A DNA stretch of 64,000 bases from an uncultured delta proteobacterium (GTDB lineage Bacteria; Desulfobacterota; Binatia; UBA9968): the NCBI GenBank assembly GCA_963840855.1, contig CAWJBB010000046.1, positions 96,001 through 160,000 of the forward strand. Direction: 5' to 3'. Positions 15,301 to 30,480 of this stretch are shown here, in pieces. The notes below the pieces were generated by a model. That model saw only the letters and a list, made by a program, of their open reading frames with translations, did not search any database and was not told the origin of the DNA. Both the position numbers and the translations under genes were made by a program. The stretch's first letter is position 1; each line of letters starts with the position of its first letter.

Positions 15301-15748
15301 TCATTTCTCAGTTCCGCCCGGCACCGTCGGCGGTGGTATTTCAATGGGCAGCACTTCCTCGTCGGGACGAAGGGGTCTAAATCGCGCGGTTTCGGCGGGA
15401 TTTGGTGGATTCCACGTGATTGCCTGCCAAGCGCACTCGGCGGGAGTCATTAAGGCCATCTTGCGCCGTAGCGCAATTGTCACACGGTTCGATTGGTCGT
15501 TTAAGTTCTCCAAGATGCTCGTGCCTGCATCCAGGCCCTCTGGCCGCATGGTTTTAATCAGATCCAGTGCCAGCCGCCTAGCTTCACGAGAGTCGGCGCG
15601 CGCCTTCTCAATCAGGTACGGTCTTTGTCTCGCCTCTAGAATCCCGCACGGATGCGGCGAACCGAAAGAAGAACCATGTGAGGGCAAGGTAGGCCGCTAT
15701 AATTCCCACCATGCCGACGAACAAATGCTTCATTGTAATTTTGCCCAT
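15301..15748 (-). CDS. Membrane-anchored hypothetical protein (1-nt frameshift near 15665)
   Basis: MGKITMKHLFVGMVGIIAAYLALTWFFF joins GSPHPCGILEARQRPY... after a single-base shift. Confidence 0.5.
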
Positions 15749-15779
15749 GGGTCCGCGTGAGCCTTAAACCATGGCGGGC

Positions 15780-15809
15780 ATTCTCCCCCCGGAAACCAGC
15801 CCAGGTCAA
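15780..15809 (-). promoter_or_regulatory. Sigma70-type promoter for divergent cargo (element 1)
   Basis: TTGACC-N18-GAGAAT on the minus strand; same layout at 26451-26480. Confidence 0.55.
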
Positions 15810-15868
15810 CCTCAAATTCTGTTATTGATTTCTACCACCAAAAACTTCAAAGTCGCTTTGTAACCCAC

Positions 15869-15944
15869 GGGGTCTAGGGTAGCGCACCCGAAAAGCCGGT
15901 TAAAGGATGAACGCCAGTTCATCCCCTCCTGCCGGCCTGACCCC
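15869..15944 (+). ncRNA. Structured leader RNA (CI/C4-like candidate), element 1
   Basis: GGGGUC-U-AG/CUGACCCC closing stem, CACCCGAAAA junction, GCCGGU/GCCGGC stem, inner GGAUGAAC/GUUCAUCC hairpin; homologous to 26537-26594. Confidence 0.65.
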
Positions 15945-15978
15945 TTCATGAAAGCAGGAGGCCGTCAAGGAGGGCGGG

Positions 15979-16737
15979 ATGAAAACAACCAAGAATACAT
16001 TCGATGTAGAATCTGCTTTTGTCTGGGGCCCTTGGCAAAAACAGATCCAAGAAACCTTCGACAAGGCCGGACCCATCATCGAAAAACTCTCGCCTGAGAT
16101 TGACCCAGGATATATTTATTACCTACTTCGAGAGCAGACTTATATCGCCATGAACAGGGCCAATGCTGACCAGCGGAAAATTGAACAATCGTGGGTCAAG
16201 TTATGTCATGCACTAGAGACCTTTCTGTCATGCGCTTTCGGTAGTAAACCTTTGCGAGAAATCGAGCGAGCTTTGGCGGAAGCCGCGGGAGAAGAGAAGG
16301 CAAAGCTGAAGCTACAGGTGAGACCAGAAGAACTAGCCCCTACGCCCTCTAAAGAAATGCTGAAGGCATTGAATAGCTATGCAGATGAACTCGGACTTCT
16401 GCGCTACAAGTGGGTGGTTAGCGAAGACCGGGCAGGTGGTAGACCACCTGCTGAGTGGACTAATGACGTGGCTTTTGCCATGGAAGTGCACTTTACTGCG
16501 AAGTTGGGAACGCCGCAGCGAAGGGTTATCAGTCAACTCCTCTTCTGTGCCCCCGCGGCGGCCTCCATATCCATGGAACAAAAACAGATTCGCCAGAGAC
16601 TTTCTAAGAAAAGAAGAGAAAACAAAAAGCCCATATTGTCTAACATGGCCTACGATCTAGAACGTCCCTACCGCGAATGGGTTGAAGCAGGAGCTAAAGG
16701 ACCGTGTCCCTCTTTTTGTCCACCGGTCAATTTTTAG
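15979..16737 (+). CDS. Hypothetical protein, first gene of element 1 core operon
   Basis: 252 aa ORF with AGGAGG SD. Confidence 0.7.
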   Translation: MKTTKNTFDVESAFVWGPWQKQIQETFDKAGPIIEKLSPEIDPGYIYYLLREQTYIAMNRANADQRKIEQSWVKLCHALETFLSCAFGSKPLREIERALAEAAGEEKAKLKLQVRPEELAPTPSKEMLKALNSYADELGLLRYKWVVSEDRAGGRPPAEWTNDVAFAMEVHFTAKLGTPQRRVISQLLFCAPAAASISMEQKQIRQRLSKKRRENKKPILSNMAYDLERPYREWVEAGAKGPCPSFCPPVNF

Positions 16738-16925
16738 AAAGCCCACGTCTGATACTCGGTTATCTGAGGAAACTTTCACAAAACTCGCCACGAACCTGCA
16801 CCAAAAATACGCGCAACCAAGACAAAAATAGGGAGCGATAAACCAGTTAGGGTTTATCGCATCGTGACAAAGGGGCTGAGAGTGGTCAAACTGCTCTCAG
16901 CTTTTTTATTTTCACGAGGTGAAAG

Positions 16926-17105
16926 ATGATTGAAGAACCCATCGACCCCGAAGGTGCGGCCAAGGTGCTCGGGATCAAAACGATCACCGTATACAAGTGG
17001 GTGCATGAACGGAAGATCCCCTTCCTTAAAGTCGGCGGCGCTCTGAGGTTTCGGCCTTCGGCGCTTGAGGAGTGGCTGCGCCAACGCGAATTTTCACCGA
17101 AATAA
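16926..17105 (+). CDS. Excisionase/AlpA-like HTH_17 protein (59 aa, not in ORF track)
   Basis: MIEEPIDPEGAAKVLGIKTITVYKWVHERKIPFLKVGGALRFRPSALEEWL; GAGGTG SD. Confidence 0.85.
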   Translation: MIEEPIDPEGAAKVLGIKTITVYKWVHERKIPFLKVGGALRFRPSALEEWLRQREFSPK

Positions 17106-17164
17106 AGACAGCAGCGCCCCGGACATGCTGGCAGGCAGCCGAGGCGCGAAAAGGAGAGAATGCG

Positions 17165-17350
17165 ATGCAACAGATCAATAGCACAAACACGAACGGTGAT
17201 TCAATTCCAGCACCACGGGCACGCTGTATCGTCGAGTTTCTCGAGGGCGATACCAGTCGGCCGCCCATCGTTTATCCACTGGGGGGTTGCGACGAGATCG
17301 ACATGGCGATGTGCGATGCGATCTTGGAGAGGTGGGGAGCGCGGGAATGA
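17165..17350 (+). CDS. Small hypothetical protein upstream of rep
   Basis: AGGAG SD; ATGA overlap with rep; positional equivalent of 27761-27961. Confidence 0.5.
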   Translation: MQQINSTNTNGDSIPAPRARCIVEFLEGDTSRPPIVYPLGGCDEIDMAMCDAILERWGARE

Positions 17351-18183
17351 GCGTCAAAGTCATGACCCGCGTCTGGGAATATTCCCAGGCCAAACACTCG
17401 GAGCTTCTTATAATGCTCGCGCTGGCCGACTGGTCCGACGATGCCGGCGCGAGTTATCCGTCAATCCCAAAACTAGCCCGTAAGGCGAGACTCACAGGGC
17501 GCCAGACCAGGCGGGCACTCAATGAACTGGAAACTATAGGTGAGATTCACCGGAACAGGAGCAACGGTGGCCGGGATCGTCCAAATCACTACCTCATAAT
17601 CCTCACTGAAAACCCTGACAAAATTACCCTGAAAAAAATACAGGGTAAAAATTACCCTGAAAAAAACGACCAAGAAACCCTAGTAAAAATGTCAGGGGCT
17701 CTTATACGTCATAGAACCGTCAATAAGAAAGAGAGCACGGAATCAGACAAGCTGATTCCTGATTCTCTTTCCACCAAATCGAAGAGAAAACTTACCCGGC
17801 CGGCGCCTGACGATCGGGTTAAACCGTTCTTGACTTGGTTCGCCGAAGAGTACGAGAGGCGCATCGGCGGACCGTACGCCCCCAAGTGGGGTAAGGATGG
17901 CAAGCTCATCAAAGAGCTTCCTCCGGCTTTCGACCTGCCGAGGCTTAAAGACCTGGCCGTTCGCTTCTTTGAGTCTCCAGATCCATGGGTCCGGCAAAAC
18001 GGCGGGTTCACCGTTGGCGTTTTCATTAGTCAGATAAACAAGATCAGTTCCACCGGACCCGGCAGCAACGGCCACACCAAGCCCACCGAAGTGAAAGACT
18101 TGGACAACGGCATGGTTGAGGTCGATGGGCGGTCTATGGATCGGCGGACATACGAAAGGCGATATGGAAGCACAATCAACTGA
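17347..18183 (+). CDS. Phage-type replication initiator (N-terminal wHTH, lambda-O-like layout)
   Basis: MSVKVMTRVW...LIMLALADWSDDAG.SYPSI..LA.KARL; iteron cluster in the linker; followed by dnaB. Confidence 0.85.
   Translation: MSVKVMTRVWEYSQAKHSELLIMLALADWSDDAGASYPSIPKLARKARLTGRQTRRALNELETIGEIHRNRSNGGRDRPNHYLIILTENPDKITLKKIQGKNYPEKNDQETLVKMSGALIRHRTVNKKESTESDKLIPDSLSTKSKRKLTRPAPDDRVKPFLTWFAEEYERRIGGPYAPKWGKDGKLIKELPPAFDLPRLKDLAVRFFESPDPWVRQNGGFTVGVFISQINKISSTGPGSNGHTKPTEVKDLDNGMVEVDGRSMDRRTYERRYGSTIN
17609..17698. repeat. Iteron cluster / putative origin inside rep (element 1)
   Basis: 19-bp direct repeat aaaattaccctgaaaaaaa (17620, 17648), palindrome cagggtaaaaattaccctg, further ACCCT/AGGG half-sites. 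Confidence 0.75.
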
Positions 18184-19006
18184 ATCGGCCAAGTTTGTTA
18201 CCCAGGACGAAGCCCGTACCCGGTGGCTCAAATCTTTAGAGGCGCGCGACCATCGCCGCTATTTCAAATCAGGGTTCAAGGCACACGAGCAATCTGTAGG
18301 TGCATTCCTGCGCGGCTCATTCAATCTTTTTGCTGCGCGTCCAGGCGTCGGGAAAACTGCTTTCTTGTTCGCCCTCGCCTATCGCCAGGTGTTGGCCGGC
18401 GTAAGGGCTTATTTCTGCAATCTCGAAATGGGCGCCGAGCAAATGTGGAACCGGCTGGCATGTCTCCATGATGAGTCTCTAACGCTGCGCGAATTGAACG
18501 AAGGCGAAATAACCGACAACCGCGTCCAATACTTGACGGCGCTATCCGAAAAGCTGGCGGGGTTCTCGCCGTTGTTTTTCGAGAGCACCGAACTTAGGGC
18601 GCTGATTGCGGCGACCCAAGCGGAAATCAAGCCGTCGTCCGACTCGATCCTCTTTGTTGATTATATCGGCCTATTCACTGACAAGCGTTTAGGCCCGCAA
18701 GAGCGTTATTGGCTAATATCCGAATGCGCGAAGGCTCTAAAACTTCTCGCCCGTCAATTGGACATTCCCATCATCGCGGCTGTGCAACTCAACCGGCAGC
18801 TAGAAAACCGCAAAGATAAGACACCGACGCTGGCAGACTTAAGAGATTCGGGCGAACTCGAAAACCACGCTGATTCAGTATTCGCATTGACCCGCGAGGA
18901 TCGCGGCGTGTTGGAAATTGATTGCTTAAAAAATCGTCACGGTCCGCTTGCATCGTATTCCCTCCGATTCGACGGCCCGCGGGTGGCGCTGGAGGAATTT
19001 GATTGA
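18164..19006 (+). CDS. DnaB-like helicase, C-terminal (RecA-fold) domain only
   Basis: AARPGVGKT Walker A, LEM, VDY, QLNR, LRDSGELENHAD, LKNRHG; only ~280 aa. Confidence 0.88.
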   Translation: MEAQSTESAKFVTQDEARTRWLKSLEARDHRRYFKSGFKAHEQSVGAFLRGSFNLFAARPGVGKTAFLFALAYRQVLAGVRAYFCNLEMGAEQMWNRLACLHDESLTLRELNEGEITDNRVQYLTALSEKLAGFSPLFFESTELRALIAATQAEIKPSSDSILFVDYIGLFTDKRLGPQERYWLISECAKALKLLARQLDIPIIAAVQLNRQLENRKDKTPTLADLRDSGELENHADSVFALTREDRGVLEIDCLKNRHGPLASYSLRFDGPRVALEEFD

Positions 19007-19755
19007 TGCAATTCACCGCGCCTTACGCCCTAATCGGCGACAGTGCAAACCTTGCGTTGCATCTTCACCCGGATCATCTGGCAGACTTGCGAGCGTCAGG
19101 CCTGCGCGATGAGACAATCCGCGCCGCCGGCGTCTATTCGCTCGCGCCACGATTCATTGAGCACTTTTTCGGGAGTGTACCAGCCGAGGTTCAAACCGCG
19201 CTTTGCTTTCCTTATCCGGGCGGCGACTTCGCTCGGATCAAGCTCTTTCCCGCGTTAGGTAAGATGAAATATTCCCAACCGCCCAAAACTGGCGCCCGGC
19301 TTTACCTCCCCTTCGAGGTGAAGGACGGCTCGTTGTACGTGTGTGAAGGCGAGAAAAAGACGTTGGCCGCACATCAGGCCAGCATGAACGCGGCCGGGAT
19401 TGGTGGGCTTTGGAATTGGCTGACGAAAGGTGAGCCCATTGATGACCTAAAACTTATCGAGTGGGACGGCCGTGACGTTATCATCATTCCAGATTCTGAC
19501 GTGTTTCAACGCCAAGACTTACTTAGAGCGGTTTATGCCCTGGGCCGCGAGCTGAGAGGGCGCGGGGCGTCGGTCAGCGTCGCCGAGATCCCGCAACCGG
19601 GACAGGAGAAGATCGGACTTGATGACTACTTTGTGGCGGGCGGGCGCGTCGATGATCTGCAAACGTGCACTCTTGGCGGGCAAACCTTCCGGTCAGCGTC
19701 ATTCTGGTATGGGCAATGGAAAATAAAAACGGCGACATTAGCGACAGCGGCGTGA
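19003..19755 (+). CDS. DUF3854 / TOPRIM-like primase-related protein
   Basis: HLADLRASGL, KYSQP, VCEGEKK, GIGGLWNW, PDSD, KIGLDDY. Confidence 0.8.
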   Translation: MMQFTAPYALIGDSANLALHLHPDHLADLRASGLRDETIRAAGVYSLAPRFIEHFFGSVPAEVQTALCFPYPGGDFARIKLFPALGKMKYSQPPKTGARLYLPFEVKDGSLYVCEGEKKTLAAHQASMNAAGIGGLWNWLTKGEPIDDLKLIEWDGRDVIIIPDSDVFQRQDLLRAVYALGRELRGRGASVSVAEIPQPGQEKIGLDDYFVAGGRVDDLQTCTLGGQTFRSASFWYGQWKIKTATLATAA

Positions 19756-19799
19756 GGAGCAGGCGGCAACATAGGCGAGCGCAAGGAAGGGAAAAACCA

Positions 19800-20264
19800 A
19801 TGGAGGACGTGACTATGACTGACGCACAGGAGCTTTGGCTGATTGCCGAGAGGCGGAGAGCCTATGCTAAGAACGTGACGGCGCACGAGGTAGATTATAA
19901 CGTTGACGATGATGGGCTTGCGCACATCGTGGAGGACTCGATCAGCGAGTTTATCAGGTGTTGGTATACGTTCTACATCGAAGGCCAGACTTGCCGCCGT
20001 GATGCCGCTGTACTCGATTGGGCACCAATACGAGCGATGACGGCGGCGCTTCTCATGAATCCAGAGCGTCTACGCCGGGTCATCGAAGAGTTTCAAAAGA
20101 GGCACAAGTACAGGGAGGACGAGCTGTTCGACCCGGTAGTGGCGTTGATCAGCGAGAAGCTACTGGACGCAGCAGGTGCGATAAACGATGGTAATGAATG
20201 GACGGTGCCGCAGGATGTCATGGAGAAGCTGCGAGAAAATGCGCACCCAACGGTGCGGCATTGA
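19800..20264 (+). CDS. Hypothetical protein
   Basis: 154 aa ORF with a purine-rich SD, in operon orientation. Confidence 0.55.
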   Translation: MEDVTMTDAQELWLIAERRRAYAKNVTAHEVDYNVDDDGLAHIVEDSISEFIRCWYTFYIEGQTCRRDAAVLDWAPIRAMTAALLMNPERLRRVIEEFQKRHKYREDELFDPVVALISEKLLDAAGAINDGNEWTVPQDVMEKLRENAHPTVRH

Positions 20265-20356
20265 AAGCGGCGAGGGATGACTAGGCGGCGAATAGGCGGG
20301 CACTTTCTGAAGCCGATCCCGATTAAGCCTAACCAACGAAAAACCAACGAAAACCG

Positions 20357-20659
20357 ATGAAATTTCAGAGGGGCAACAAACTAGCCGCAGGCGGCCGACG
20401 CGATCCGGCAGGCGGGCGGCCTACAAGGGCAGCTCTCGAAGCGCAGGAAGCTAGACTCGCCGTCTGGCAAAAGGAATTGGAGAAAAACGAATTGATACTT
20501 GCGCGGCGCTACATCAAGCGAGCCATGAAATCAGACCGGGTTTTGATCGACGCTCGCAAGGCGACCGTACCGGATGCCAAGAAGGAGATCGAGCATTCCG
20601 GCGAGGTAGGCGTTCGGCCGTGGCTTGTCGATGCCTACGAGCCAAAGAAAAAGAAATGA
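20357..20659 (+). CDS. Terminase small subunit-like protein
   Basis: FQRGNKLAAGGRRDPAGGRP N-terminus and KEIEHSGEV C-terminus, both typical of TerS-type proteins; paralog at 24903. Confidence 0.6.
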   Translation: MKFQRGNKLAAGGRRDPAGGRPTRAALEAQEARLAVWQKELEKNELILARRYIKRAMKSDRVLIDARKATVPDAKKEIEHSGEVGVRPWLVDAYEPKKKK

Positions 20660-20852
20660 GGATGATTGCTCTTATTGGTCTGGGCCAGTTTTACGCGCCA
20701 AGCGCACAGATCGACTGCGACGCCGACCCGATAGCCCATGAGCGATAGATCGTCGTTTATGTACAGTGTGCACGCCGCAGAAATGCATCATTTGAAGGAA
20801 TGCTTCGCAATCAAATCATCGACGCCATGAAGGGTGGGCATAAGCGACTTCT

Positions 20853-21206
20853 ATGATCGAGCAAACCCTAAACCCGTTTGACCCGTTCTTCGAGAAGATC
20901 CGGGAAATTGTCCGCGAGGAGTTAAAGGCGGCCGGGAACGGGAACGGACACGGGGGCAATATTACCGAGACAGACAAAAAGGAACTGCAACGCTTGAAGG
21001 CTTTGGCGGCTGGAAAGGCGGCAGTCCAGGCAGGCGCATTGCTTACCGCCGAGCAATTGGCCGCGATGTTACAGGTCGACAAAGCGACGGTGTACGAACG
21101 AGTGAAGAAAAAAGCTATCCCTTTCTATCAGGCCGGGCGCTTTGTGCGATTCAATCTCGATGAAGTTTTAGAGAGTCAACGAAATAAAAACGACAATCCT
21201 TCTTGA
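20853..21206 (+). CDS. Excisionase-family HTH_17 DNA-binding protein
   Basis: IREIVREEL N-terminus; LLTAEQLAAMLQVDKATVYE...IPF...GRFVRF. Confidence 0.85.
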   Translation: MIEQTLNPFDPFFEKIREIVREELKAAGNGNGHGGNITETDKKELQRLKALAAGKAAVQAGALLTAEQLAAMLQVDKATVYERVKKKAIPFYQAGRFVRFNLDEVLESQRNKNDNPS

Positions 21207-21232
21207 CGGACTGTAAGTATTATGCTTATAGT
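21203..21232 (+). promoter_or_regulatory. Sigma70 promoter for xre-int (probably leaderless)
   Basis: TTGACG-N18-TATAGT ending 6 nt before GTG 21239; no SD. Confidence 0.6.
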
Positions 21233-21238
21233 GGGTTT

Positions 21239-21427
21239 GTGACTGGCAGGGACTTCAAGAAGATGCGGCTTGCGAAAGGCTACAGTCAATCACAGTTAGC
21301 GCGTGAACTGGACGTGCATGTGGTGACGGTTTCAAAGTGGGAGAGGGGAGTTGTACCGATCCCGCGCATGGCCGAGCTGGCGCTTTCGTCCTTAAAGCCC
21401 AGGTCAAAACCAAAGAAGGGGGTTTAG
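21239..21427 (+). CDS. XRE-family HTH transcriptional regulator
   Basis: KKMRLAKGYSQSQLARELDVHVVTVSKWERG. Confidence 0.85.
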   Translation: MTGRDFKKMRLAKGYSQSQLARELDVHVVTVSKWERGVVPIPRMAELALSSLKPRSKPKKGV

Positions 21428-21429
21428 CT

Positions 21430-22607
21430 ATGGCAGCAGTTTACAAAGTGGGCAAGAAGTGGCGCGCGGACTTTACCGACAAGGAAGGCTTTCGCCACCG
21501 CCAGAGGTTCAAAACGAAGGGGGAGGCGGACGCCTATCTCACCGAGAAAAAGTCGGAGCTTAAAGACGGCACCTATGTTTCACCCAAAGACATACCGACC
21601 TATGGTGCTCTAGCGGATTCGTGGATTGCGGGCAGGATCGAGCAGTCACGGACACCGGGGGCGGGCTATCGGCCGTCAACCCTGGCGCAGTGGCAAACCC
21701 ATGTTGCGCACATGAAAGCGTGTTTTGGCGAAAACAAGAAAGTTAACGACATCGACGCGCAGGCAATTGAAAGGGCAATCGGCAAACTCCGGCTTGCGAA
21801 AGAGCAGGGCGGCCGCGGGCTATCGGTCAAGACCGTGGGCAAGGTGCTTACCACCATGAGCCGGATCTTCAAGTTTGGGATCCGCAATAAATGCGGTATC
21901 CAGACCGATCCGACAAAGCTTATCGAGAAGGTAAAGGACAGTTCTGGCGAGCAGACAGAAACGGGCGAGCGGCTGAATGTCTTACATGAAGTCACGGAAA
22001 AGGAAGTGCTCACGCCCGAGGAAGCCAAGCGCGTGATCTTGGCGGCCAAGCCGGGGCTTTACAGGACTATCATTCAGACAGCGATCTACACCGGCGCAAG
22101 GATCAGCGAGCTCCTGGCGCTAAAATGGCCGGACGTGCACCTTGATGGCAGCGTTATCGACATTCGCCGAAGCGTATCAACGGCAAAGGTGAAAGGGGAG
22201 ATAACGCAAGAAAAGTACCGCTGGTTTGATCCCAAGACGAAGCGCGGGGTTAGAGAAATACCGATCCCCCCGCAGTTAGTCGCGGCGCTCAAGGAATGGA
22301 AAGAGAGGGGTCCGAAGAGCCGGCTTGATTTGGTATTCTGTAACGGGTTTGGCGAACCCTGCGAACGAACCGGAATGGGGCGCTATGGGCTAAAGCCGGC
22401 GCTTAAGCAGGCGGGTATTGATAAGGCGGTTACGCCGCACGGACTGAGACACACCTATGCGTCAATGCTCATTCTGCTCAAGAGACCGATAACGGAAATC
22501 TCTCACTACCTGGGCCACGCGGATGTTTCAATCACGATGCGCATTTCTTGAAGCCGAAGAAACAGGACACGATGAGCGACTTGGAAAGGCTTATCGAGAA
22601 TGGCTAG
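21430..22607 (+). pseudogene. Tyrosine integrase with a frameshifting deletion removing the catalytic Tyr
   Basis: TGARISE, HGLRHTY and LGH are present. After SITM the frame shifts at ~22539, and the other frame resumes AHFLKPKKQD...ENG*; the KVY seen in integrase 2 is missing. Confidence 0.85.
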
Positions 22608-22619
22608 CCAAAAGTTCTT

Positions 22620-22679
22620 TGGCACAGTTAGGCACAGTTTGACACAGAAGGGGAAAAATATAATTGTAAGTAGCTGATA
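22620..22679 (+). repeat. attR1 arm: three GGCACAG-type repeats plus an IHF site
   Basis: tggcacagtt-aggcacagtt-tgacacag at 10-bp period; 22667-22679 reverse complement TATCAGCTACTTA fits WATCARNNNNTTR. Confidence 0.7.
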
Positions 22680-22687
22680 TTGCTTAT

Positions 22688-22761
22688 GCCCCCGTAGCTC
22701 AGGTGGATAGAGCACAGGATTCCTAATCCTGGGGCCGCGTGTTCGAGTCACGCCGGGGGCA
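22688..22761 (+). tRNA. tRNA-Arg (anticodon CCT)
   Basis: Full cloverleaf: GCCCCCG/CGGGGGC acceptor, D arm, CAGGA-TTCCTAA-TCCTG anticodon arm, GCGTG-TTCGAGT-CACGC T arm; CCA not encoded. Confidence 0.96.
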
Positions 22762-22784
22762 TTTCTAAGTAATCAAATCTCAAG

Positions 22785-22812
22785 GGGAAAGCTGGAAACA
22801 GCTTTCCCTTTT
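22785..22812 (+). terminator. Rho-independent terminator after the tRNA
   Basis: GGGAAAGCTG-GAAA-CAGCTTTCCC-TTTT. Confidence 0.8.
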
Positions 22813-22832
22813 CTTTTGTCCAAGCGTCCAAT

Positions 22833-22850
22833 GTCTCTAAAATGTCTCTA
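22833..22850 (+). repeat. attL2 arm-type repeats (GTCTCTA x2)
   Basis: 11-bp spacing; same heptamer three times at 33984-34011. Confidence 0.7.
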
Positions 22851-22999
22851 TGGCGGCGCCCGGGCGCCCTTAGGCGGCGGTTTTCGTCGTTTATGGTGCT
22901 CCGGTAGCTACGTGTGGCTAAAACTTTGAGCTTGTCTGAGATACTCGCCAAGGACAACGACACGCCGGCCAACCGCAATGGCGCCGCGGATGGTGGACA

Positions 23000-23239
23000 A
23001 TGACAAATATTGAATTCGCTCAAGCATGGACACGCAAGCTTGAAGCGTTGGGAATCGTCCTGAATAACGGCATCGTGCTGACCGGCCCGGCAAGGTTCGT
23101 CGAGCGCCCGCTTCATCCACACCCGAGCCGTGGAAGGAAGAAAATTCACGCTTCTGGCTACGCGAGACTCAAAGCACACCGGTGGAGAAAGTCAGGCATC
23201 CGGATAAAGGTCACGGATGATAACGAAATAGGTTTGTAA
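23000..23239 (+). CDS. Small basic hypothetical protein
   Basis: GRKKIHASGYARLKAHRWRK basic motif. Confidence 0.45.
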   Translation: MTNIEFAQAWTRKLEALGIVLNNGIVLTGPARFVERPLHPHPSRGRKKIHASGYARLKAHRWRKSGIRIKVTDDNEIGL

Positions 23240-23703
23240 CTACCGAGATTGAAAGGAGAAAAAAGGGCCATTTTTCGCGTATGGCTATAACACCATTAAC
23301 CGGGGATTTTCGTTATCATTGAGGGCTCAACTGGCCACCATAGCTTAGTAGGACACAAATGGGCTTCTCCCGGAAGCATCAAAATTGCGGCGATGAATAT
23401 CAGACCGGTAAAGGTACCAGGCCATGAGCCTTTCGAAACGATCAGGGAAAAAATCCAGAATTGACGGCATTTAGGGAAAGATCGCCGAAGCGCCGTCCAG
23501 GTTTCATTTCGTTTATTTCCCTCTTGCCCTTCAAAGCTGTCAATCGAATGTCACCCATTGTCAAGACAAGCACGGCCGTTTAAAATGATTATTTCGGAAC
23601 CATGACCCAAGCAGATGCAAAAGAGGCACTAGAGAGATTTAACCGGGTACAGGGGGCATGAGCAGGAAGAAAATAGGTCCGAAATGGAGGAGAAAGGAAT
23701 CTA

Positions 23704-24765
23704 ATGAAGATATTCTTGGGTTTGGGTTTGGCGGCGGCGGTATTCCTAGCGAGCAGCGCCGGGGCAGCAGAGATTCCTCACAAGTTCAGGATTTTGGATA
23801 TTAAGATACCGGGGCAGGCTTGGCCCCGCGCAGCCCTGGTAGATATTAACAAGTGGGGCAAAGTGCTTGCCCACACGCCAATGTTAAACGGCGACACGGT
23901 GAGCATTTTGAGCGACGGCAAGACATCACACAAGCCTTTCGGCTGTAAGAAAGAAGCGGGCGAGACTCTAAGTTATACCTACGCAACAGCTTTGAATGAT
24001 AAGAACTATTCGGTAGGTAATTGTTATCTCTGGAATCCTACAACGGAAAGCTATCGGACGATTGCATTTCTGGCGACTCCGACAGGCCGGATAGTGGATC
24101 TGACGAGTCTCAATGTCGCGTACCAAGCTTTTAGCTTTTTACAACCACAAGGCATGAGTCCCGGCAGCCAATACATTACGGGGAATTTTTATAACGGCGT
24201 GGACTCATTTCCACATTGCTTCTTGATCGACAGAGTTGCGGGATCTTTTACCGACATCGCTTTTCCATCTCCGATACCGACGGCAGACGTGAATAGCAAC
24301 TGCGTTGGCGTCAATAAATTCGGACAGGTTCTTGGGGAATATGTCGCTAATGACCTAGCGACAAACGAGAGCTTGGAACACGGCTTTTTCCTATGGGACA
24401 AAGGCGTTTTTTCAATTCCATTGCCCTTGAGCCACGATATTGATGGCGGGCCATACACTATCGCTTATGACATAGAAGGGGATACTGACGCCCTTCTAGG
24501 ACTTTACAATGGCAACGACGGCACAGGGTATGCGGTTTTCTTCTTCGATGACGGGGTTAGCTACGGCATCGCCGAGCCCGCTAATTGGGCCGTAAATGAT
24601 CTTGGCGGCATGAGCACTCGGGGAACATTCGTCGGCAATGTCACAATTTTCAAAGGGCTAGATAAATTTTGTATGGAAGTTGTTGGCGACCCGGATTATT
24701 GCGCCATTGAAGAAAGCCACGGGTTTGTCGCCACGCCGGCGCCTATCAAGGTCGCTTCAAAGTGA
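23704..24765 (+). CDS. Secreted repeat protein (HAF-repeat / beta-propeller-like)
   Basis: Signal peptide; recurring xINxxG/GVNKFGQVLG and HGF/HCF blades; strong SD. Confidence 0.65.
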   Translation: MKIFLGLGLAAAVFLASSAGAAEIPHKFRILDIKIPGQAWPRAALVDINKWGKVLAHTPMLNGDTVSILSDGKTSHKPFGCKKEAGETLSYTYATALNDKNYSVGNCYLWNPTTESYRTIAFLATPTGRIVDLTSLNVAYQAFSFLQPQGMSPGSQYITGNFYNGVDSFPHCFLIDRVAGSFTDIAFPSPIPTADVNSNCVGVNKFGQVLGEYVANDLATNESLEHGFFLWDKGVFSIPLPLSHDIDGGPYTIAYDIEGDTDALLGLYNGNDGTGYAVFFFDDGVSYGIAEPANWAVNDLGGMSTRGTFVGNVTIFKGLDKFCMEVVGDPDYCAIEESHGFVATPAPIKVASK

Positions 24766-24902
24766 AGCTGCGAGGCCAGTTCGAGACAATAGGTGAAAAC
24801 GCAATCGAGTTTTTCAACAGGGTTTCAAGGAGTGGCTAATCGTGAGTAAAATCGTTCATATAAGGCGTAAAGCTTGGAACCCGCAAAACCAAAGGAGAAC
24901 CT

Positions 24903-25280
24903 ATGGCAGACGGACCGGGCGGTAGATTCACGAAGGGTCATAAACTTGCCAAAGGCGGGCTAAGGGATCCGCCTGGAGGCAGGCCAACCAAGGCGGAAGT
25001 GGCGCGCCGAGAATCGCTCAAGGAGGTTCTAGAACGTCTACGCGAGGAAGAGGCGAACACGTTAGCGGCCAGATACTACGAGATGGCCAAAGATGATCCG
25101 GCGACCATGCGGCACGCGGTTGACAAGGTTTTGCCCAACGCAAAGCAAGAGATAGGCGTTACCGGCGATGTCAACGTGGGCCTCAACCGCGAATCGATCA
25201 TCGCCTTGATGGCGACCAAGGAAGGGCGCGAGGCTGCATTGGCTATCACTAAGGCGCTGGCGGGGCAATCTAAGCCGTAA
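24903..25280 (+). CDS. Terminase small subunit-like protein
   Basis: GRFTKGHKLAKGGLRDPPGGRPT...KQEIGVTGDV; homologous to 20357-20659; AAGGAG SD. Confidence 0.6.
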   Translation: MADGPGGRFTKGHKLAKGGLRDPPGGRPTKAEVARRESLKEVLERLREEEANTLAARYYEMAKDDPATMRHAVDKVLPNAKQEIGVTGDVNVGLNRESIIALMATKEGREAALAITKALAGQSKP

Positions 25281-25388
25281 TGGAACCCGCCCAACGTTTA
25301 CCATACCGGCAATTATTAAAGCGGCGGCGGCAGAACGGCGAATGCTTCGAGTGCTTTTGCGGCAGTGGGCGGAGCAAGTGAAAAAAGT

Positions 25389-25607
25389 CTACTCTCTTAC
25401 TCGAAGGCAAGCAGTAGTAGAAGTGGTAGTAGCGCAAATCCATACGCGACCAGTCCAGTTGTCCATAACGTAAACCCCCGTATGACCCTCCGGGGTTATG
25501 ACGGCGGCCGTCATTCGATAACGAAAATCCAACGCAATAAGAAAAAGCATAATAATCGCTAAAGCCAAGACGAGCGCCTTCAATCTATCCAAAAGTTTTT
25601 CCTCCAT
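25389..25607 (-). CDS. Small membrane-anchored hypothetical protein
   Basis: N-terminal TM helix; YVMDNWTGRVWIC. Confidence 0.55.
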   Translation of the reverse strand: MEEKLLDRLKALVLALAIIMLFLIALDFRYRMTAAVITPEGHTGVYVMDNWTGRVWICATTTSTTACLRVRE

Positions 25608-25671
25608 GCCATACTCTCTTCAAAACATCTATTATTTGGACGCCCATTTTGTCCATGCTCTAAGCGCCTCT

Positions 25672-25884
25672 TCAATCGCCTTTGTGTCGCCGGTAGAGTG
25701 TTAGCCAGACGAGCCCGCAGATGATCCAGATTGCAAGCACAATGCTGACTTTCTCGACAATCCGGATCACAACGATCCCAGCTCCATACATCCGAACTTC
25801 AAGACCATCGGGCCAACCGACCATCAGAGTGACGATCGAAAGCAATCCGCCTACCCACAAAATTATCAGCTGGCCCCGTTTCAT
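25672..25884 (-). CDS. Small two-TM hypothetical protein
   Basis: Two hydrophobic segments in 70 aa. Confidence 0.5.
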   Translation of the reverse strand: MKRGQLIILWVGGLLSIVTLMVGWPDGLEVRMYGAGIVVIRIVEKVSIVLAIWIICGLVWLTLYRRHKGD

Positions 25885-25995
25885 CTAGAAGGCCGAGATG
25901 ATTTCCACTGTTCCGACGAACAAATGTTTCATTTTGTAATCTTGCCCACTGGGCTGCGTGCGCCTTAACCGATGGCACGCGCGACGGACGGCAGA

Positions 25996-26412
25996 TCAAA
26001 CGTCGTCATCGTGCCTCCATTCATCGTAGAGTCGGGCTCGCTCGTCTCTGGCCTTATCGATGCAGCGCAATACGATAGCGGCGCAAAGCCAGTAAAGTAC
26101 CGCCGCAAGTATACATCCGATGACCCCCGCTTCCTTACCGAATATTATGCCCACGAGGAAGCCGAGCATGAAAACTACAAAAACCCCAACGACGATCTCT
26201 CCCGAGAAGTGTGCGTCCGGTTCGAAGCGATCATCCAGATTGTGATATTTCTCTCTGAGCTTGATCCGCTCTTGCGCGCTGAGGTATCCAAAACGAATAA
26301 GCCGGCGCCGATCAAACTCACCTCTAAGGTGTCGTTGTTCCAGATCCGCCTTTTCTTCTTGCGTTAGTTCAGACCACGGTTTCATATGCCAGAATCTCCC
26401 AAGGGAGATCAT
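25996..26412 (-). CDS. Two-TM hypothetical protein
   Basis: Charged N-terminal domain and a TM hairpin; GGAGG upstream. Confidence 0.6.
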   Translation of the reverse strand: MISLGRFWHMKPWSELTQEEKADLEQRHLRGEFDRRRLIRFGYLSAQERIKLREKYHNLDDRFEPDAHFSGEIVVGVFVVFMLGFLVGIIFGKEAGVIGCILAAVLYWLCAAIVLRCIDKARDERARLYDEWRHDDDV

Positions 26413-26450
26413 TCACGACTGTCTAACACCTCCATGAATAGCCGGGTCGC

Positions 26451-26480
26451 ATTCTCGCGCAGGAAAGCAATCCCCGTCAA
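26451..26480 (-). promoter_or_regulatory. Sigma70-type promoter for divergent cargo (element 2)
   Basis: TTGACG-N18-GAGAAT on the minus strand. Confidence 0.55.
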
Positions 26481-26536
26481 ACGCATTTTTCGTTGCTTTT
26501 CCAGCCCAAATCCTTACATTGGGGAAGTGCATTCCT

Positions 26537-26594
26537 GGGGTCTAGGCTGATCACCGAAACGGCCCGGAGATTCTCACACGCCGGGCCTGGCCTC
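26537..26594 (+). ncRNA. Structured leader RNA (CI/C4-like candidate), element 2
   Basis: GGGGUCUAGG start, CACCGAAA junction, GGCCCGG/CCGGGCC stem, UGGCCUC closing strand; homologous to 15869-15944. Confidence 0.65.
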
Positions 26595-26632
26595 TTTCTC
26601 TGCCAAAGGTGTGAGAGAAACAGTGTGAGAGG

Positions 26633-26896
26633 ATGTCAAAACCTCCAAGCAAAGCGACCAAGCGTCGCACTCGAAAACCGCTCGATGCAAGCGAGTTCTC
26701 AGACCGCCAACTATTGATCCATTGGGGCCGTGTTCTACAGAGCCAGCAACTGTGGCTCGCGCAAATTATTCAAAGCCTCGGCGCACCGCTACTGCCAGGT
26801 ATACCCGAACGGCTCCGCCAGAACCTGTCTCGTGAACACTTGAGAGCTTGGCTGAATGATGGGGTTTCCGCTGAACTTAATCAGTGGGCTGCTTAA
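26633..26896 (+). CDS. Hypothetical protein, first gene of element 2 core operon
   Basis: 87 aa ORF directly after the leader RNA. Confidence 0.5.
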   Translation: MSKPPSKATKRRTRKPLDASEFSDRQLLIHWGRVLQSQQLWLAQIIQSLGAPLLPGIPERLRQNLSREHLRAWLNDGVSAELNQWAA

Positions 26897-27647
26897 GGCA
26901 TCTAACGAAGAAAGTTCAGTCAGGAAAGAGATAGCGGGAAGGCTGACAGGTGCGGTCGTGTCCAGATTGATCGATGTCCGCGGCGAGAAGGTCGGAAGGA
27001 GCGATAGCTTGCCGGATAACCTAAGAGAGATACGGCGGGCCTTCATGGTAGACAGGATTAAGGCAAAGCAATCCATACCTGATGATGAGGATGCCAGGAG
27101 CGATGTGTTTCTCGACGCCTGGACTGAGCTTAATCGACAGGCTGAGTCGATAATAAAAACTTCATGGCCCTTGCCGACAGCAGAAAGCGCCTTTGAAGCT
27201 GACTTATATGAGCGATGGCAAACAGACGTGCTATCGGCCTTGAAAAACCGCTGGATTGCTTTCCTTCCAATCTTGGTGGAACGAGAAGCGGTAAACTACA
27301 TGCCAGCAAGAATCAAGATGGATCAAATCGACAGGGCACGGTCTAAGGCAGCAAAGAAACGGAAAGGCATCGAAGTCGAGTATGATGAGACATTACACGA
27401 GGAGCCTTTGATGCCTGCCGGCGATAATTCAGAAGAAACCAAGCTCTTAGAATCAGAAGGTGTACGAAAACGGCTAAAAAAACTGGATGAGGCGGCAGAT
27501 AGATATGCCCCAGAAACGGGCCGAGCTATTCGATTGATTTTAAGAGAAGGTTATAGCCAAAAAAGAGCAGCCGAAGCTGAAGGCATCCCAGAATCTACCT
27601 TGAGTGAGAGGATCATAAGAGAAGAAATCGAAAAAAGTGACCTCTAA
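26856..27647 (+). CDS. Hypothetical protein with C-terminal HTH (sigma region-4-like); may be fused to the upstream ORF
   Basis: AIRLILREGYSQKRAAEAEGIPESTLSERI. Confidence 0.6.
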   Translation: MMGFPLNLISGLLKASNEESSVRKEIAGRLTGAVVSRLIDVRGEKVGRSDSLPDNLREIRRAFMVDRIKAKQSIPDDEDARSDVFLDAWTELNRQAESIIKTSWPLPTAESAFEADLYERWQTDVLSALKNRWIAFLPILVEREAVNYMPARIKMDQIDRARSKAAKKRKGIEVEYDETLHEEPLMPAGDNSEETKLLESEGVRKRLKKLDEAADRYAPETGRAIRLILREGYSQKRAAEAEGIPESTLSERIIREEIEKSDL

Positions 27648-27760
27648 CCCGTCCCATCAATCTTTTTCTCTGCCTATAAATCCTTCTTAAATCAATCGGT
27701 TATCCTAGCACCGGATTTCCCCTTCTGTTTTTCGAGTATCTATATCAGGAGGAGAAATTC

Positions 27761-27961
27761 ATGCTTGTCATTGAAATCGACCCGGCCGGAGGACAAATCG
27801 CTCAAGTGTTCGTGCGAGCGGCCAGCGTTGAAGCCGAGGATGCCGCGCTTCGCGCTTGGCAGAGCGTTAGGCCACTCGTCGACGCCATCGACCTTAAGTT
27901 GAGGCAAGACAACTCGCCGCGAACTATTACGGCTTCCCGGCCACTGGAGGCCGGGTTGTGA
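27761..27961 (+). CDS. Small hypothetical protein upstream of rep
   Basis: AGGAGG SD; GTGA overlap with rep. Confidence 0.6.
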   Translation: MLVIEIDPAGGQIAQVFVRAASVEAEDAALRAWQSVRPLVDAIDLKLRQDNSPRTITASRPLEAGL

Positions 27962-28737
27962 GCGTAAAAATCATGGCTAAAGTCTGGGCAAGTTCACACC
28001 GCAAGGACGGCGAGCTTCTTGTCATGCTTGCCCTGGCGGACTTTTCAAACGATGCCGGCGAGAGCTGGCCGTCAATCCCGACGCTCGCGCAGAAGGCTCG
28101 ACTAACTGAGCGGCAAACACGACGCGTCTTAAGGAAACTCGAAGAAGCTGGAGAGATCCGCCGAGTAAAGAGCAACGGCGGCCGGAATCGGCGGAATCAC
28201 TACTTCATTACCCTCACTGAAAACCCTGATAATATTACAGGGAAAGAATTACAGGGTAAAAATAACCCTGTTATTGGCGACACTAAACCCCTGACGCCCA
28301 TGTCAGGGGCATTAAACCATCATAGAACCGTCAATAAGAGCGGCGCTAAAGCGCCTTGTGATTCTTCTCCATCCCGAAGGGAAAGAAAGAATACCCGCGG
28401 CGCCAGCATCCCGCCCGAGCTTCAAGCCGCCGTTTCCCGCATCGTCGCCAAAATCAACGAACTGGGTGGCACTCGCTACCATGACGACAGCCCGGACGCT
28501 CTCCACAATTTGATTGCCCGTTTGCGCGATGGCCGGACCGAGGCCGAGTGCCTGGCCGTGGTAGAAGGCCGCCACGCGGCATGGGCGGACAAAAAAGAGA
28601 TGCAAGAGTATTTCCGCCCGAGCACGCTATTTGCCGCGGTGCACTTCGAGGATTATTTGCAGGCCGCGCAGAGACAGAGCAACGGCGCCGCCGAATCCAA
28701 CCCCGAACGGCGAAAGGAACTTTTTATCAATGCCTGA
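27958..28737 (+). CDS. Phage-type replication initiator (wHTH plus conserved phage C-terminal domain)
   Basis: N-terminus nearly collinear with the 17347 rep; C-terminal MQEYFRPSTLF...FEDYL (Phg_2220_C-like). Confidence 0.85.
   Translation: MSVKIMAKVWASSHRKDGELLVMLALADFSNDAGESWPSIPTLAQKARLTERQTRRVLRKLEEAGEIRRVKSNGGRNRRNHYFITLTENPDNITGKELQGKNNPVIGDTKPLTPMSGALNHHRTVNKSGAKAPCDSSPSRRERKNTRGASIPPELQAAVSRIVAKINELGGTRYHDDSPDALHNLIARLRDGRTEAECLAVVEGRHAAWADKKEMQEYFRPSTLFAAVHFEDYLQAAQRQSNGAAESNPERRKELFINA
28221..28309. repeat. Iteron cluster / putative origin inside rep (element 2)
   Basis: ttacaggg x2, palindrome cagggtaaaaataaccctg, inverted repeat cccctgac-N6-gtcagggg. Confidence 0.7.
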
Positions 28738-29602
28738 GAAGACTGCCCTGGAATACGTGGCGATGGCCGATGCCGTGCGCGATTTCGCCAAAGGCATGGA
28801 CGCGCAGACCGAAGACGACTTTTTCCCTACCGGGTTTCGGTCGCATGATTTAGCCCTCGGGCGGCTGCGCCGCGGATCCCTGACTTTTGTTGGCGCCAGG
28901 ACATCGATGGGGAAAACCGCCCTCATGCTCAATATGGCGCTGGCGCAGATGAAAGCGGGCGTACAAGTCTATTTCTTCACGCTCGAGATGCCGCGAAACG
29001 ATATGATTGCCCGCCTTGTGAGTATCGCAACCGGCATTCCCCTTTTGGATATCCTGCAAAATCGTGTTGACGAGAAACAGGTACGCGAGATCGGCGGCGC
29101 CCTACCGATTCTATCGCCGCTTCCTGGGAATTGGACCGAAGAGGGAAACCTAAAACGAATCGGCGAACTGTTCAGCCGGATTGAACCGAAGAGCAGAAGC
29201 ATCGTTTACGTCGACTTCCTGGGGCTTGTGCAAGTATCGGGACTAGACGCAACGCAGCAATACGCTGTGACGACCGAAGCCGGGTTATCGCTGAAGCGCG
29301 CCGCGATGGGGCTTCAGATTCCCGTGGTGGCCGGGGTGCAATTGAATCGCCAAGTCGAAGCCCGAAAAGAAAAGCATCCGCTTTTGTCAGACTTCAGGGA
29401 TAGCGGCCGGCTCGAAGAGATTGGCGATGTCTGCCTTGGGCTCTATCGCCCGGGCTTTTATGACAAGAACGCAGACACGGAGCTTCAGGTTTTTTGCCTG
29501 AAGAACCGTAACGGCCCGCGCGTCAACTATGTTTTGGAATGGTACGGACCATGCGCCAGGGCGACAGAGAAGCACAAACTGTCATGGCCGGAGGTTGCGT
29601 AG
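28730..29602 (+). CDS. DnaB-like helicase, C-terminal domain only
   Basis: PTGF..D, GARTSMGKT, LEM, QLNR, FRDSGRLEE.GD, LKNRNGP. Confidence 0.88.
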   Translation: MPEKTALEYVAMADAVRDFAKGMDAQTEDDFFPTGFRSHDLALGRLRRGSLTFVGARTSMGKTALMLNMALAQMKAGVQVYFFTLEMPRNDMIARLVSIATGIPLLDILQNRVDEKQVREIGGALPILSPLPGNWTEEGNLKRIGELFSRIEPKSRSIVYVDFLGLVQVSGLDATQQYAVTTEAGLSLKRAAMGLQIPVVAGVQLNRQVEARKEKHPLLSDFRDSGRLEEIGDVCLGLYRPGFYDKNADTELQVFCLKNRNGPRVNYVLEWYGPCARATEKHKLSWPEVA

Positions 29603-29606
29603 GTCG

Positions 29607-30359
29607 ATGCAATTCCAGGCGCCATACTCTCTTGTGCCTTTCGGTGAGCTTGCCTTACGCTTTCATCCGGACCACCTAGCCGACTTGCGGGCGTCGGGCT
29701 TGAGCGATGACACGATCCGGGCGGCCGGCGTGTATTCGATTCGCCCGCGCGACATCGCATTGTTTTTCAATTTGCGCCGCGGTGTCCCCTCTGAGATTGA
29801 AAGCGCTCTTTGTTTTCCGTACCAGGGCAGCGACTTCGCCCGACTGAAACTTTTTCCGCCAGTCGGAAAAATGAAATACTCGCAACCGCCAAAGACCGGC
29901 GCGCGTTTATACATGCCGTTTAAAATCGGCGACGGTCCCCTCTACGTTTGCGAAGGCGAGAAAAAAACCCTCGCGGCGTATCAGGCTGGGCTCAACGCAG
30001 GTGGCATCGGCGGCGTCTGGAATTGGCTAAGCGCCGGGCAACCTATCGACGATTTACGGTTGATTGACTGGGACGGGCGCGAAGTAACGCTGATTCCTGA
30101 TTCCGATGTATTCAACCGCCCGGACTTGCTTCGCGCCGTCTACGCCTTAGGGCGCGAGCTGCAATCCCAAAGCGCCCGCGTTTATGTTGCGCAGATCCCA
30201 CAAACCGGCTCGGCAAAAGTCGGGTTTGATGACTACTTAGTTTCGGGCGGCAAGGTTAATACCCTTGAAGTCTTTTCCTTGAGCCACAGCATTTTCAGGC
30301 GGCTTAGTTTTTGGCACAGCGAATGGAAATTCAAGAGAGCGCTAAGAGAGGCGGCATGA
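29607..30359 (+). CDS. DUF3854 / TOPRIM-like primase-related protein
   Basis: Close paralog of 19003-19755 (CEGEKK, PDSD, GFDDY). Confidence 0.8.
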   Translation: MQFQAPYSLVPFGELALRFHPDHLADLRASGLSDDTIRAAGVYSIRPRDIALFFNLRRGVPSEIESALCFPYQGSDFARLKLFPPVGKMKYSQPPKTGARLYMPFKIGDGPLYVCEGEKKTLAAYQAGLNAGGIGGVWNWLSAGQPIDDLRLIDWDGREVTLIPDSDVFNRPDLLRAVYALGRELQSQSARVYVAQIPQTGSAKVGFDDYLVSGGKVNTLEVFSLSHSIFRRLSFWHSEWKFKRALREAA

Positions 30360-30480
30360 TGGCGGCGGGGAATCGTAGAGACACCATAGAGACACAGGTC
30401 AAAAAGGCCAATGAAAACGCGGGCACAAAGCAGGGCGCAATATAAGCAATCCTGGGGCATTCGACGCGGGCGGGCGTGAA

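Follow-up and report, generated by a model that had tools for sequence, protein, structure and literature searches.

A stretch of 64,000 nucleotides (nt) from an uncultured delta proteobacterium (contig CAWJBB010000046.1 of assembly GCA_963840855.1, positions 96,001 to 160,000; the whole stretch is referred to below as the window) carries two mobile elements, elements 1 and 2, each of which has an operon headed by a structured leader RNA. By covariance-model and structure comparison, both RNAs are divergent copies of the int-alpA motif (Rfam RF02996). In a sample of 100 unique loci, the sequence displayed on the third stem (P3) of this scaffold, referred to as the guide, co-varies with two complementary boxes in the same leader, the second of which occupies the Shine-Dalgarno position of the first gene. 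We propose that the RNA is a programmable off-switch in which pairing of the guide with the boxes occludes the ribosome-binding site of the first gene in an antisense manner, a reading to which we assign a probability of roughly two-thirds.

Two leader RNAs with a common scaffold and different guides

The first-pass annotation of the window, made from the sequence, had described two leaders with a common scaffold and a variable segment that matches a target duplicated downstream. All the strings it quoted are found where it had placed them in both elements, and the shared scaffold, with its common P1 start, junctions CUAG and C(C)GAAA, and a G+C-rich hairpin as P3, is real. The parts of the leader of element 1 are as follows.

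15867–15947, plus strand: int-alpA–type scaffold of element 1 (RF02996, 34.4 bits; lineage model R1, 47.5 bits; minimum-energy fold)
15869–15874 with 15939–15944, plus strand: P1, GGGGUC with GACCCC
15877–15880 with 15886–15889, plus strand: P2, GGGU-AGCGC-ACCC, after junction bases UA
15895–15899 with 15932–15936, plus strand: P3, GCCGG with CCGGC, preceded by the linker GAAAA
15905–15912 with 15917–15924, plus strand: hairpin of 8 base pairs (bp) inserted inside P3 (from the fold)
15924–15932, plus strand: guide CCCUCCUGC, also written CCCUCCUG(C) (from sequence and fold; the same loop occurs in relatives)
15954–15961, plus strand: box 1, GCAGGAGG, complementary to the guide (own duplex, −14.3 kcal/mol)
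15968–15974, plus strand: box 2, AGGAGGG, the Shine-Dalgarno sequence of the open reading frame (ORF) at 15979 (from sequence)
15979, plus strand: start codon ATG of the first gene

The leader of element 2 has the following parts.

26535–26597, plus strand: int-alpA–type scaffold of element 2 (RF02996, 16.1 bits; lineage model R1, 36.2 bits)
26537–26542 with 26589–26594, plus strand: P1, GGGGUC with GGCCUC
26561–26567 with 26581–26587, plus strand: P3, 7 bp (P2 of this element is weak)
26568–26580, plus strand: P3 loop, 13 nt, AGAUUCUCACACG, with the guide core UCUCACAC at 26572–26579
26609–26617, plus strand: box 1, GUGUGAGAG, including GUGUGAGA at 26609–26616
26623–26631, plus strand: box 2, GUGUGAGAG, including GUGUGAGA at 26623–26630

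The scaffold of element 2 opens with GGGGUCUAGG, which it shares with element 1, contains the linker CCGAAAC, and ends with CCUGGCCUC. Its box 2 holds the sole Shine-Dalgarno–like sequence, GAGAGG, and the last base of the box lies 1 nt before the ATG at 26633. The annotation had put the variable segment inside the G+C-rich stem; this needs correction, as the guide lies in the P3 loop. Since P3 of element 1 is interrupted by a hairpin insertion of 30 to 31 nt, the guide is there placed in an internal loop, on the 3′ side of the extended P3 arm. The minimum-energy fold of the element 1 scaffold taken alone is a three-way junction of −38.5 kcal/mol (z −4.65), and none of 200 shuffled sequences was equally stable.

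The octamer GTGTGAGA occurs four times on both strands of the window, compared to 1.01 copies expected, and three of the four copies fall within 59 nt of each other in element 2. The element 1 motif CAGGAGG is present in eight copies compared to 6.67 expected, a count that is unremarkable by itself, and therefore the significance of the element 1 arrangement rests on comparative data. Predicted duplexes of guides with their own boxes have energies of −14.3 and −13.5 kcal/mol, while cross duplexes have −7.4 and −4.8 kcal/mol; the two elements are predicted to be orthogonal, i.e., not to cross-react.

We also observed that, in many loci, the P2 loop region very often has a short palindrome (GAUC, GGCC, AGCU, GCGC, or GUCGAC); examples are positions 15881–15885 of the window, the loci L025, L023, and L022, and the Escherichia coli locus L088. 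Such palindromes could allow loop-loop dimerization of two scaffolds or could simply be part of a short irregular hairpin.

The guide co-varies with both boxes

Relatives were gathered with no constraint on the loop or the leader from three sources: 18 RF02996 matches in related genomes, 66 metagenome contigs matching the scaffold pattern with the loop given as N{6,36}, and 44 viral contigs found with the canonical core of the Rfam consensus. Removal of duplicates left 100 unique loci, 69 from the lineage of the window and 31 viral, the latter being canonical copies that include capsid-bearing satellite-like islands of E. coli; L046 and L073, whose contigs end inside the leader, were dropped. 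The lineage scaffold pattern had no matches in the viral contigs. A search of genome contigs with a helicase alignment (A2) returned two loci, both of which end before the expected position of the RNA.

Two nonoverlapping helices complementary to the guide, each of at least 5 bp with at least 4 Watson-Crick pairs, were found within 60 nt after P1 in 88 of the 100 loci. Box 1 starts at a median distance of 9 nt from P1 (range, 5 to 26), the gap between the boxes has a median of 7 nt, and the median distance from the end of box 2 to the first ORF's start codon is 6 nt (n = 77; range, 1 to 17), which is the Shine-Dalgarno position. Minimum-energy folds were computed from box 1 through the start codon; in 71 of 88, the core of box 2 is an unpaired part of a small hairpin, a count that stands without a shuffle control. 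By eye, the stems of these hairpins vary yet stay complementary: UCCG/CGGA, GUUG/CAAC, CUCG/CGAG, GCCA/UGGC, GGUC/GACC, CGCAC/GUGCG, GCGUC/GACGC, CCGCG/CGCGG, and, in E. coli, CGUU/AACG. In element 1, the flanks of box 2, CCG (15962–15964) and CGG (15975–15977), could by eye form a 3-bp stem, which is absent from the minimum-energy fold.

Loops within a Levenshtein distance of 1 or less were placed in one class and one representative of each class was used; failures were kept, and leaders were permuted among the classes. For the 26 lineage classes, the longest Watson-Crick runs between each loop and its own leader summed to 151, compared to a permuted mean of 114.2 (SD, 5.3); the measure that scores a complementary k-mer at two sites gave 127 compared to 93.9; and the RNAduplex energy was −305 compared to −236 kcal/mol. 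By each of the three measures, 0 of 100,000 permutations reached the observed value; since the loop classes share descent, these counts represent a strong association and not exact probabilities. The outcome did not change in three random draws of class representatives. L007 (G082) and L008 (G044) come from unpublished genomes, and the result without them was also unchanged (67 loci, 25 classes, 0 of 100,000). In the independent viral set of 12 classes, the observed values of the same three measures were reached by 0, 0, and 13 of 100,000 permutations. As a negative control, the P2 region was compared to its own leader, and the observed values were reached by 26,229 and 27,511 of 50,000 permutations, while for P3 in the same runs the number was 0 of 50,000. 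Single-linkage 6-mer classes, which put 51 loci in one class, had been replaced by the Watson-Crick and energy measures with 26 classes. The annotation's central claim, that the variable segment changes in step with a target present twice over the first gene's ribosome-binding site, is thus borne out at about 100 loci, with permutation and P2 controls.

The association might be a matter of composition, with pyrimidine-rich loops always matching purine-rich ribosome-binding sites. The guide of element 1 is simply an anti–Shine-Dalgarno sequence, its motif is not over-represented in the window, and off-diagonal pairs of loops and leaders still have a mean run of 4.3, all as this explanation would have it. 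However, permutation of leaders among classes keeps the composition and never reaches the observed values, and in element 2, as in many other loci, the boxes do not resemble a Shine-Dalgarno sequence. The explanation is already contradicted by these results, and we give it almost no credence.

The range of guides can be seen from the following loops and their two boxes.

CCCUCCUGC (the commonest): GCAGGAG and CAGGAGG
CACUCUCA: UGAGAG and GGAGAG
UUCCCGA: UCGGGG and CGGGAG
UAACUCCGCA: UGCGGAG and GCGGGG
UCUCCCAC: GUGGGAGA, twice
AAUCCCUUG: CAAGGG and AAGGGGU
AAGCUUCC: GGAAGC, twice
CCGCUCCG: CGGAGCG and UGGAGCG
CCCUCUCGC: GCGAGAG and GAGAGG
AAACCCUA (enterobacterial copies): UAGGG and AGGGU

In some cases, a single base of the loop has changed and both boxes follow. 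The loop of element 2 ends in UCUCACACG and its leader contains GUGUGAGA twice, while in L032 the loop ends in UCUCCCACG and the leader contains GUGGGAGA twice. Similarly, L096 has a loop ending in CCUUCA with two copies of UGAAGG, and L097 has a loop ending in CCUUCG with CGAGGGG and CGAAGGA. A further matched change is seen between the loop CUCUCCUG, accompanied by CAGGAGA in both boxes, and the loop CCCUCCUG, accompanied by CAGGAGG. Among 368 positions at which box 1 and box 2 differ, both bases can pair with the guide at 26, one can at 226, and neither can at 116, as counted by wobble compatibility. Four genomes carry two copies of the RNA. In G019 both copies have the same guide, and therefore orthogonality of co-resident elements is not a rule; in G035 and G096 the guides are only partly different. 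The loci compared indicate that the relation between loop and boxes is a property of the whole int-alpA family, from islands of E. coli to the soil lineage of the window.

The same three motif copies, of which the loop has one in inverted and the leader two in direct orientation, could instead be DNA operators bound by an element-encoded regulator, with the RNA complementarity as a by-product. Promoter-like sites adjoin the scaffold region in both elements, and both elements encode helix-turn-helix (HTH) proteins. On the other hand, from the delta proteobacterium lineage to E. coli the inverted copy always coincides with the P3 loop of an RNA of conserved structure, and the place of box 2 follows that of the Shine-Dalgarno sequence and of a hairpin, the stem of which, by eye, varies in sequence and remains complementary. 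Some box variants pair with their loops only through G-U, as CAGGGGG does with loop CCUUCCUG and AAGGGGU with loop AAUCCCUUG, and the P2 region has no such relation to the leader. Operators are therefore a very unlikely explanation of the three copies.

Both scaffolds are divergent int-alpA RNAs

The first-pass annotation could not tell whether the scaffold was present in Rfam; it is already there, as int-alpA (RF02996). RNAs of this name have been proposed to function as small RNAs near integrase and alpA genes. When the whole window was scanned with Rfam at the gathering threshold, only a tRNA-Arg was reported, and RF02996 appeared only in E-value mode. Element 1 then matched the full length of the model (1–71) with 34.4 bits (E = 1.1e-5), and element 2 was also aligned over the full length, with 16.1 bits (E = 0.55). 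Neither copy reaches the curated gathering score of 35.8 bits, element 1 falling 1.4 bits below it and element 2 far below. The sole large departure of element 1 from the model is the insertion in P3. Of 151 related genomes, 15 had RF02996 matches at E ≤ 0.01, and 9 of the genomes exceed the cutoff; one relative, L012, has 38.9 bits and passes the gathering score. Canonical int-alpA copies have 61.9 and 67.4 bits.

The annotation had also proposed a covariance model and a genome search. Model R1 was built from 43 scaffolds (alignment A5), one of which is L008 and none of which comes from the window. In the window it recovers exactly two sites, 15867–15947 (47.5 bits, E = 4.9e-9) and 26535–26597 (36.2 bits, E = 2.1e-6), and in the whole assembly the same two sites only, among the 150 of 4909 candidates scored. 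In A5, 91.5% of the P1 to P3 cells pair and nine pairs change on both sides; 0 of 500 shuffles reach this, and structures shifted by a few columns score far worse. For 33 of the 43 rows, P3 and the P1 5′ strand had been fixed by the retrieval pattern, and in those rows the free evidence is mainly the P1 3′ strand and P2.

Alignment to the consensus and R1 shows the RF02996 three-way junction of P1, P2, and P3, with CUAG, CGAAA(A)G, and CUG, in the window scaffolds. The genomic context of the family, an integrated element with integrase and AlpA-type HTH genes beside the RNA, is found in both elements. The RF02996 model also has a 3′ tail that ends in a purine box with the consensus uaAgGG, complementary to its P3-loop consensus, CCuUua, and this tail aligns with box 1 of element 1 and with AAAGG of element 2. 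Since box 1 is thus included in the model, the original authors may have noticed part of the relation.

The int-alpA motif was found by bioinformatics in a comparative study of 224 motifs (PMC5737381), the main text of which has no occurrence of “alpA.” Our literature search, which covered this main text, found no function reported for int-alpA: The name stands either for an RNA listed in a table or for a gene order, and in neither case is a function given. The same search did not find the covariation of the loop with two boxes stated; the supplement of the study, where the motif is presumably described, may mention a pseudoknot or Shine-Dalgarno complementarity. By this comparison, the scaffold family is known and curated, and the two divergent members, the insertion of element 1, and the relation of the guide to two boxes would be new.

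A proposed off-switch of the first gene

An int-alpA–type leader RNA opens the rightward operon of replication, excision, and integration genes of each element. Its parts follow in the order P1, CUAG, P2, CGAAA(A)G, P3, and CUG, and P3 displays the guide as a short single-stranded segment. Farther along the transcript, the complement of the guide is present twice, with box 1 about 9 nt after P1 and box 2 over the Shine-Dalgarno sequence. According to our proposal, pairing of the guide with box 2, which in most loci would be a loop-loop “kissing” contact, would block binding of the 30S ribosome subunit to the first gene. Through lost translational coupling or polarity, the downstream replication, excisionase, and integrase genes would be kept low and the element would remain quiescent. 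Translational repression, and the state that it would control, are what we infer from the arrangement of the leader. Specificity would reside in 6 to 9 nt and could be changed if the loop and both boxes change together. Box 1 may be a second binding site for cooperative repression, like the two targets of the CI RNA of satellite P4, or an intramolecular competitor of box 2. The guide may act on its own transcript, in trans as a released RNA, or in both ways.

Several observations weigh against this reading, in addition to the shared descent of the loop classes and the uncontrolled hairpin count given above. When a looser, G-U–permitting measure was applied to 13 coarse classes, the signal was weaker: The best helix was reached by 572 to 4245 of 100,000 permutations (the second helix, by 1 to 18 of 100,000). 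The annotation had held that homologs lacking complementarity to their own leader would speak against it; the 88 loci with two boxes favor the claim, and the remaining 12 of the 100 unique loci do not. Among these, L024 (with its duplicate L045), L033, and L065 have truncated scaffolds, L054 keeps the scaffold and has a leader with no boxes, L029 and L049 have one site, and L015, L017, L090, L092, and L125 have weak sites or none; L061 is likely a false match of the pattern. Among the 88 there are also spurious automatic two-site calls, namely, L016, L030, L037, L053, L060, and element 1, the boxes of which were read manually since its long insertion misled the site picker. The scaffold of element 2 taken alone is no more stable than shuffled sequences (z −0.74; 48 of 200), and no convincing stem flanks box 2 of this element. 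Last, only 25 of 67 and 4 of 31 loci have a U-tract after P1 that could release a short RNA; as this feature is not general, we do not claim release by termination.

In a group of metagenome loci (L024, L045, L033, L053, and L065), homology ends directly behind the 3′ strand of P3 (...CCGGCCTG), and these copies lack the P1 3′ strand and both boxes. The pattern resembles repeated truncation, or recombination junctions, at a single point in the RNA gene.

The leader could also work as an intramolecular switch only, setting translation of the first gene through a pseudoknot or kissing contact of the guide with one of its own two boxes; no RNA would be released, and there would be no immunity between elements. 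Box 1 could then be a decoy that frees the Shine-Dalgarno sequence. In line with this, guide and boxes are always in the same transcript with box 1 close behind P1, no terminator-like site was found between the scaffold and the first gene in either element, a U-tract is not general, the two elements of G019 share one guide, and the Rfam model itself contains box 1 as a 3′ tail complementing the loop. However, the guides have diversified beyond plain anti–Shine-Dalgarno sequences (UCUCACAC, CUCGUCA, and CGCUCCG), which is easier to understand if specificity matters between molecules, and a target presented in a hairpin loop, as box 2 is, is typical of fast two-molecule antisense recognition. 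Action in cis is, moreover, compatible with action in trans. We regard a purely intramolecular switch as rather unlikely.

Returning to guide-box pairing as an off-switch, we tentatively extend it to a broader function. Possibly, though at less than even odds, int-alpA is a widespread programmable antisense immunity module of satellite-like elements with dozens of orthogonal specificities, in which the released RNA silences its own operon and cross-silences incoming elements of the same specificity. If true, this would be an independent invention of the principle used by the C4 and CI RNAs and might explain how Gram-negative phage-inducible islands keep their early operon silent. While int-alpA sat in Rfam without a function, the present data give a concrete and testable mechanism. 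If confirmed, it would bear on the quiescence of islands and on how related islands tell each other apart, and it would provide a compact natural set of orthogonal RNA regulators.

Gene context of the two elements

In both elements, the RNA heads a rightward operon with the same gene order: one or two first genes without a family match, an HTH_36/O-like replication initiator, a DnaB_C helicase, a DUF3854 primase-like gene, an excisionase-like HTH gene, and a tyrosine integrase. No Pfam or PHROG match was found for the first gene of either element. The DnaB_C helicases of elements 1 and 2 are 35% identical. The genes and the tRNA between the elements are listed below.

15979–16737, plus strand: first gene of element 1, 252 amino acids, no family match; heads the operon that reaches the integrase
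17287–22551, plus strand: rest of the element 1 operon (HTH_36 replication initiator, DnaB_C helicase, DUF3854 primase-like, HTH_17 excisionase-like, integrase)
20853–21206, plus strand: HTH_17 excisionase-like gene of element 1
21337–22551, plus strand: integrase of element 1
22687–22762, plus strand: tRNA-Arg (CCT), between the two elements
26633–33982, plus strand: operon of element 2 (after the first gene, a 263–amino acid HTH protein, replication initiator, DnaB_C helicase, DUF3854, excisionase-like, integrase)
26633–26896, plus strand: first gene of element 2, 87 amino acids
30481–30771, plus strand: excisionase-like gene of element 2
32804–33982, plus strand: integrase of element 2

A 46-nt direct repeat with 89% identity (22719–22764, the 3′ part of the tRNA-Arg gene, and 34117–34162) brackets element 2, and the two copies are likely its attachment sites. 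Since the 3′ part of the tRNA is repeated beyond the integrase of element 2, this element is an island integrated at the tRNA gene. The end of the element 1 integrase directly precedes the same tRNA-Arg; a left-hand repeat for element 1 was not found within the window.

To the left of each RNA there is a conserved leftward promoter-like site, TTGACS-N18-GAGAAT (15780–15809 and 26451–26480). A conserved 44-nt stretch with 82% identity (15691–15734 and 25890–25933) is, on the minus strand, the start of a small hydrophobic ORF, MKHLFVG.... Together, the stretch and the leftward site suggest a divergent leftward gene in both elements. Within its replication-initiator gene, element 1 has AAAATTACCCTGAAAAAAA twice as an exact 19-nt repeat (17620–17638 and 17648–17666); the starts are 28 nt apart, and the copies may be iteron-like origin repeats. 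The excisionase-like region of element 2 is partly duplicated (30599–30749 and 32232–32562; 76 to 80% identity). The stretches concerned are 30481–30771, 31093–31980, and 32309–32674; between the duplicates lies a gene with beta-roll/ice-binding–like repeats (PF21300), an arrangement suggestive of inserted cargo.

Two metagenome loci of the lineage of the window have the RNA, an unannotated first ORF, and then a primase or primase-helicase gene, with an integrase nearby. In the canonical E. coli copy, the RNA lies between the integrase and an operon encoding a hypothetical protein, an AlpA-like HTH regulator, a KilAC antirepressor, an Icd-like protein, and a DUF927 primase; capsid and protease genes come next. 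In our reading, this is how a capsid-forming phage-inducible island is laid out. When 800 nt of the E. coli region were used as a query, 46 of 5426 complete E. coli genomes were matched.

Comparison with known systems

The closest known RNA is int-alpA itself, which has the same three-way junction with junction bases CUAG, CGAAAAG, and CUG, heads an operon of integrated mobile elements next to genes for an integrase and an AlpA-type HTH protein, and has a 3′ tail ending in box 1. Element 1 differs from it in the P3 insertion hairpin of 30 to 31 nt, which puts the guide in an internal loop, and element 2 in its 7-bp P3 and weak P2.

In antisense plasmid control of the CopA/CopT type (plasmid R1), too, a guide loop meets a hairpin-loop target at or near a ribosome-binding site by kissing. 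Such antisense RNAs are encoded on the strand opposite to the target, while in the window RNAs the guide and its targets lie on the same strand and in the same leader.

The C4 and CI RNAs of phages P1/P7 and satellite P4 (RF01695) are released from a leader by RNase P processing and act in trans. Like the window RNAs, they are leader-derived and consist of two hairpins within an outer stem, the second hairpin having a loop complementary to two sites of its own transcription unit. Early replication genes of a temperate or satellite element are under their control, as they putatively are under that of the window RNAs. P4 CI is processed from an untranslated leader and pairs with seqA and seqC, according to the part of PMC4825925 drawn on here. 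The regions 15750–16050 and 26430–26700 of the window had no match to RF01695 at E ≤ 10, while P4 CI (L132, X51522), used as a positive control, was recognized as C4 with 74.9 bits; P4 in turn had no RF02996 match at the gathering threshold. On the minus strand of X51522, at 8420–8507 and 8615–8692, the CI RNA is recognized as C4 and the upstream seqA region as isrK (60.8 bits).

The two groups also differ in architecture. P1 has 17 bp in C4 and 6 to 8 bp here, stem lengths and junction sequences differ generally, and the families are not placed in one Rfam clan. One target, seqA, is upstream of the RNA in P4, while both targets are downstream in the window; the outcome reported for P4 is transcription termination, while the target here is a ribosome-binding site. 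The analogy to P4 CI and C4 drawn by the first-pass annotation is thus apt as a mode of action, and it does not extend to membership in the C4/CI family. Most likely, the window RNAs share the mode of action and not descent with C4 and CI, to which they have no detectable homology in sequence or structure. If confirmed, they would be a second, unrelated scaffold among leader-derived antisense repressors.

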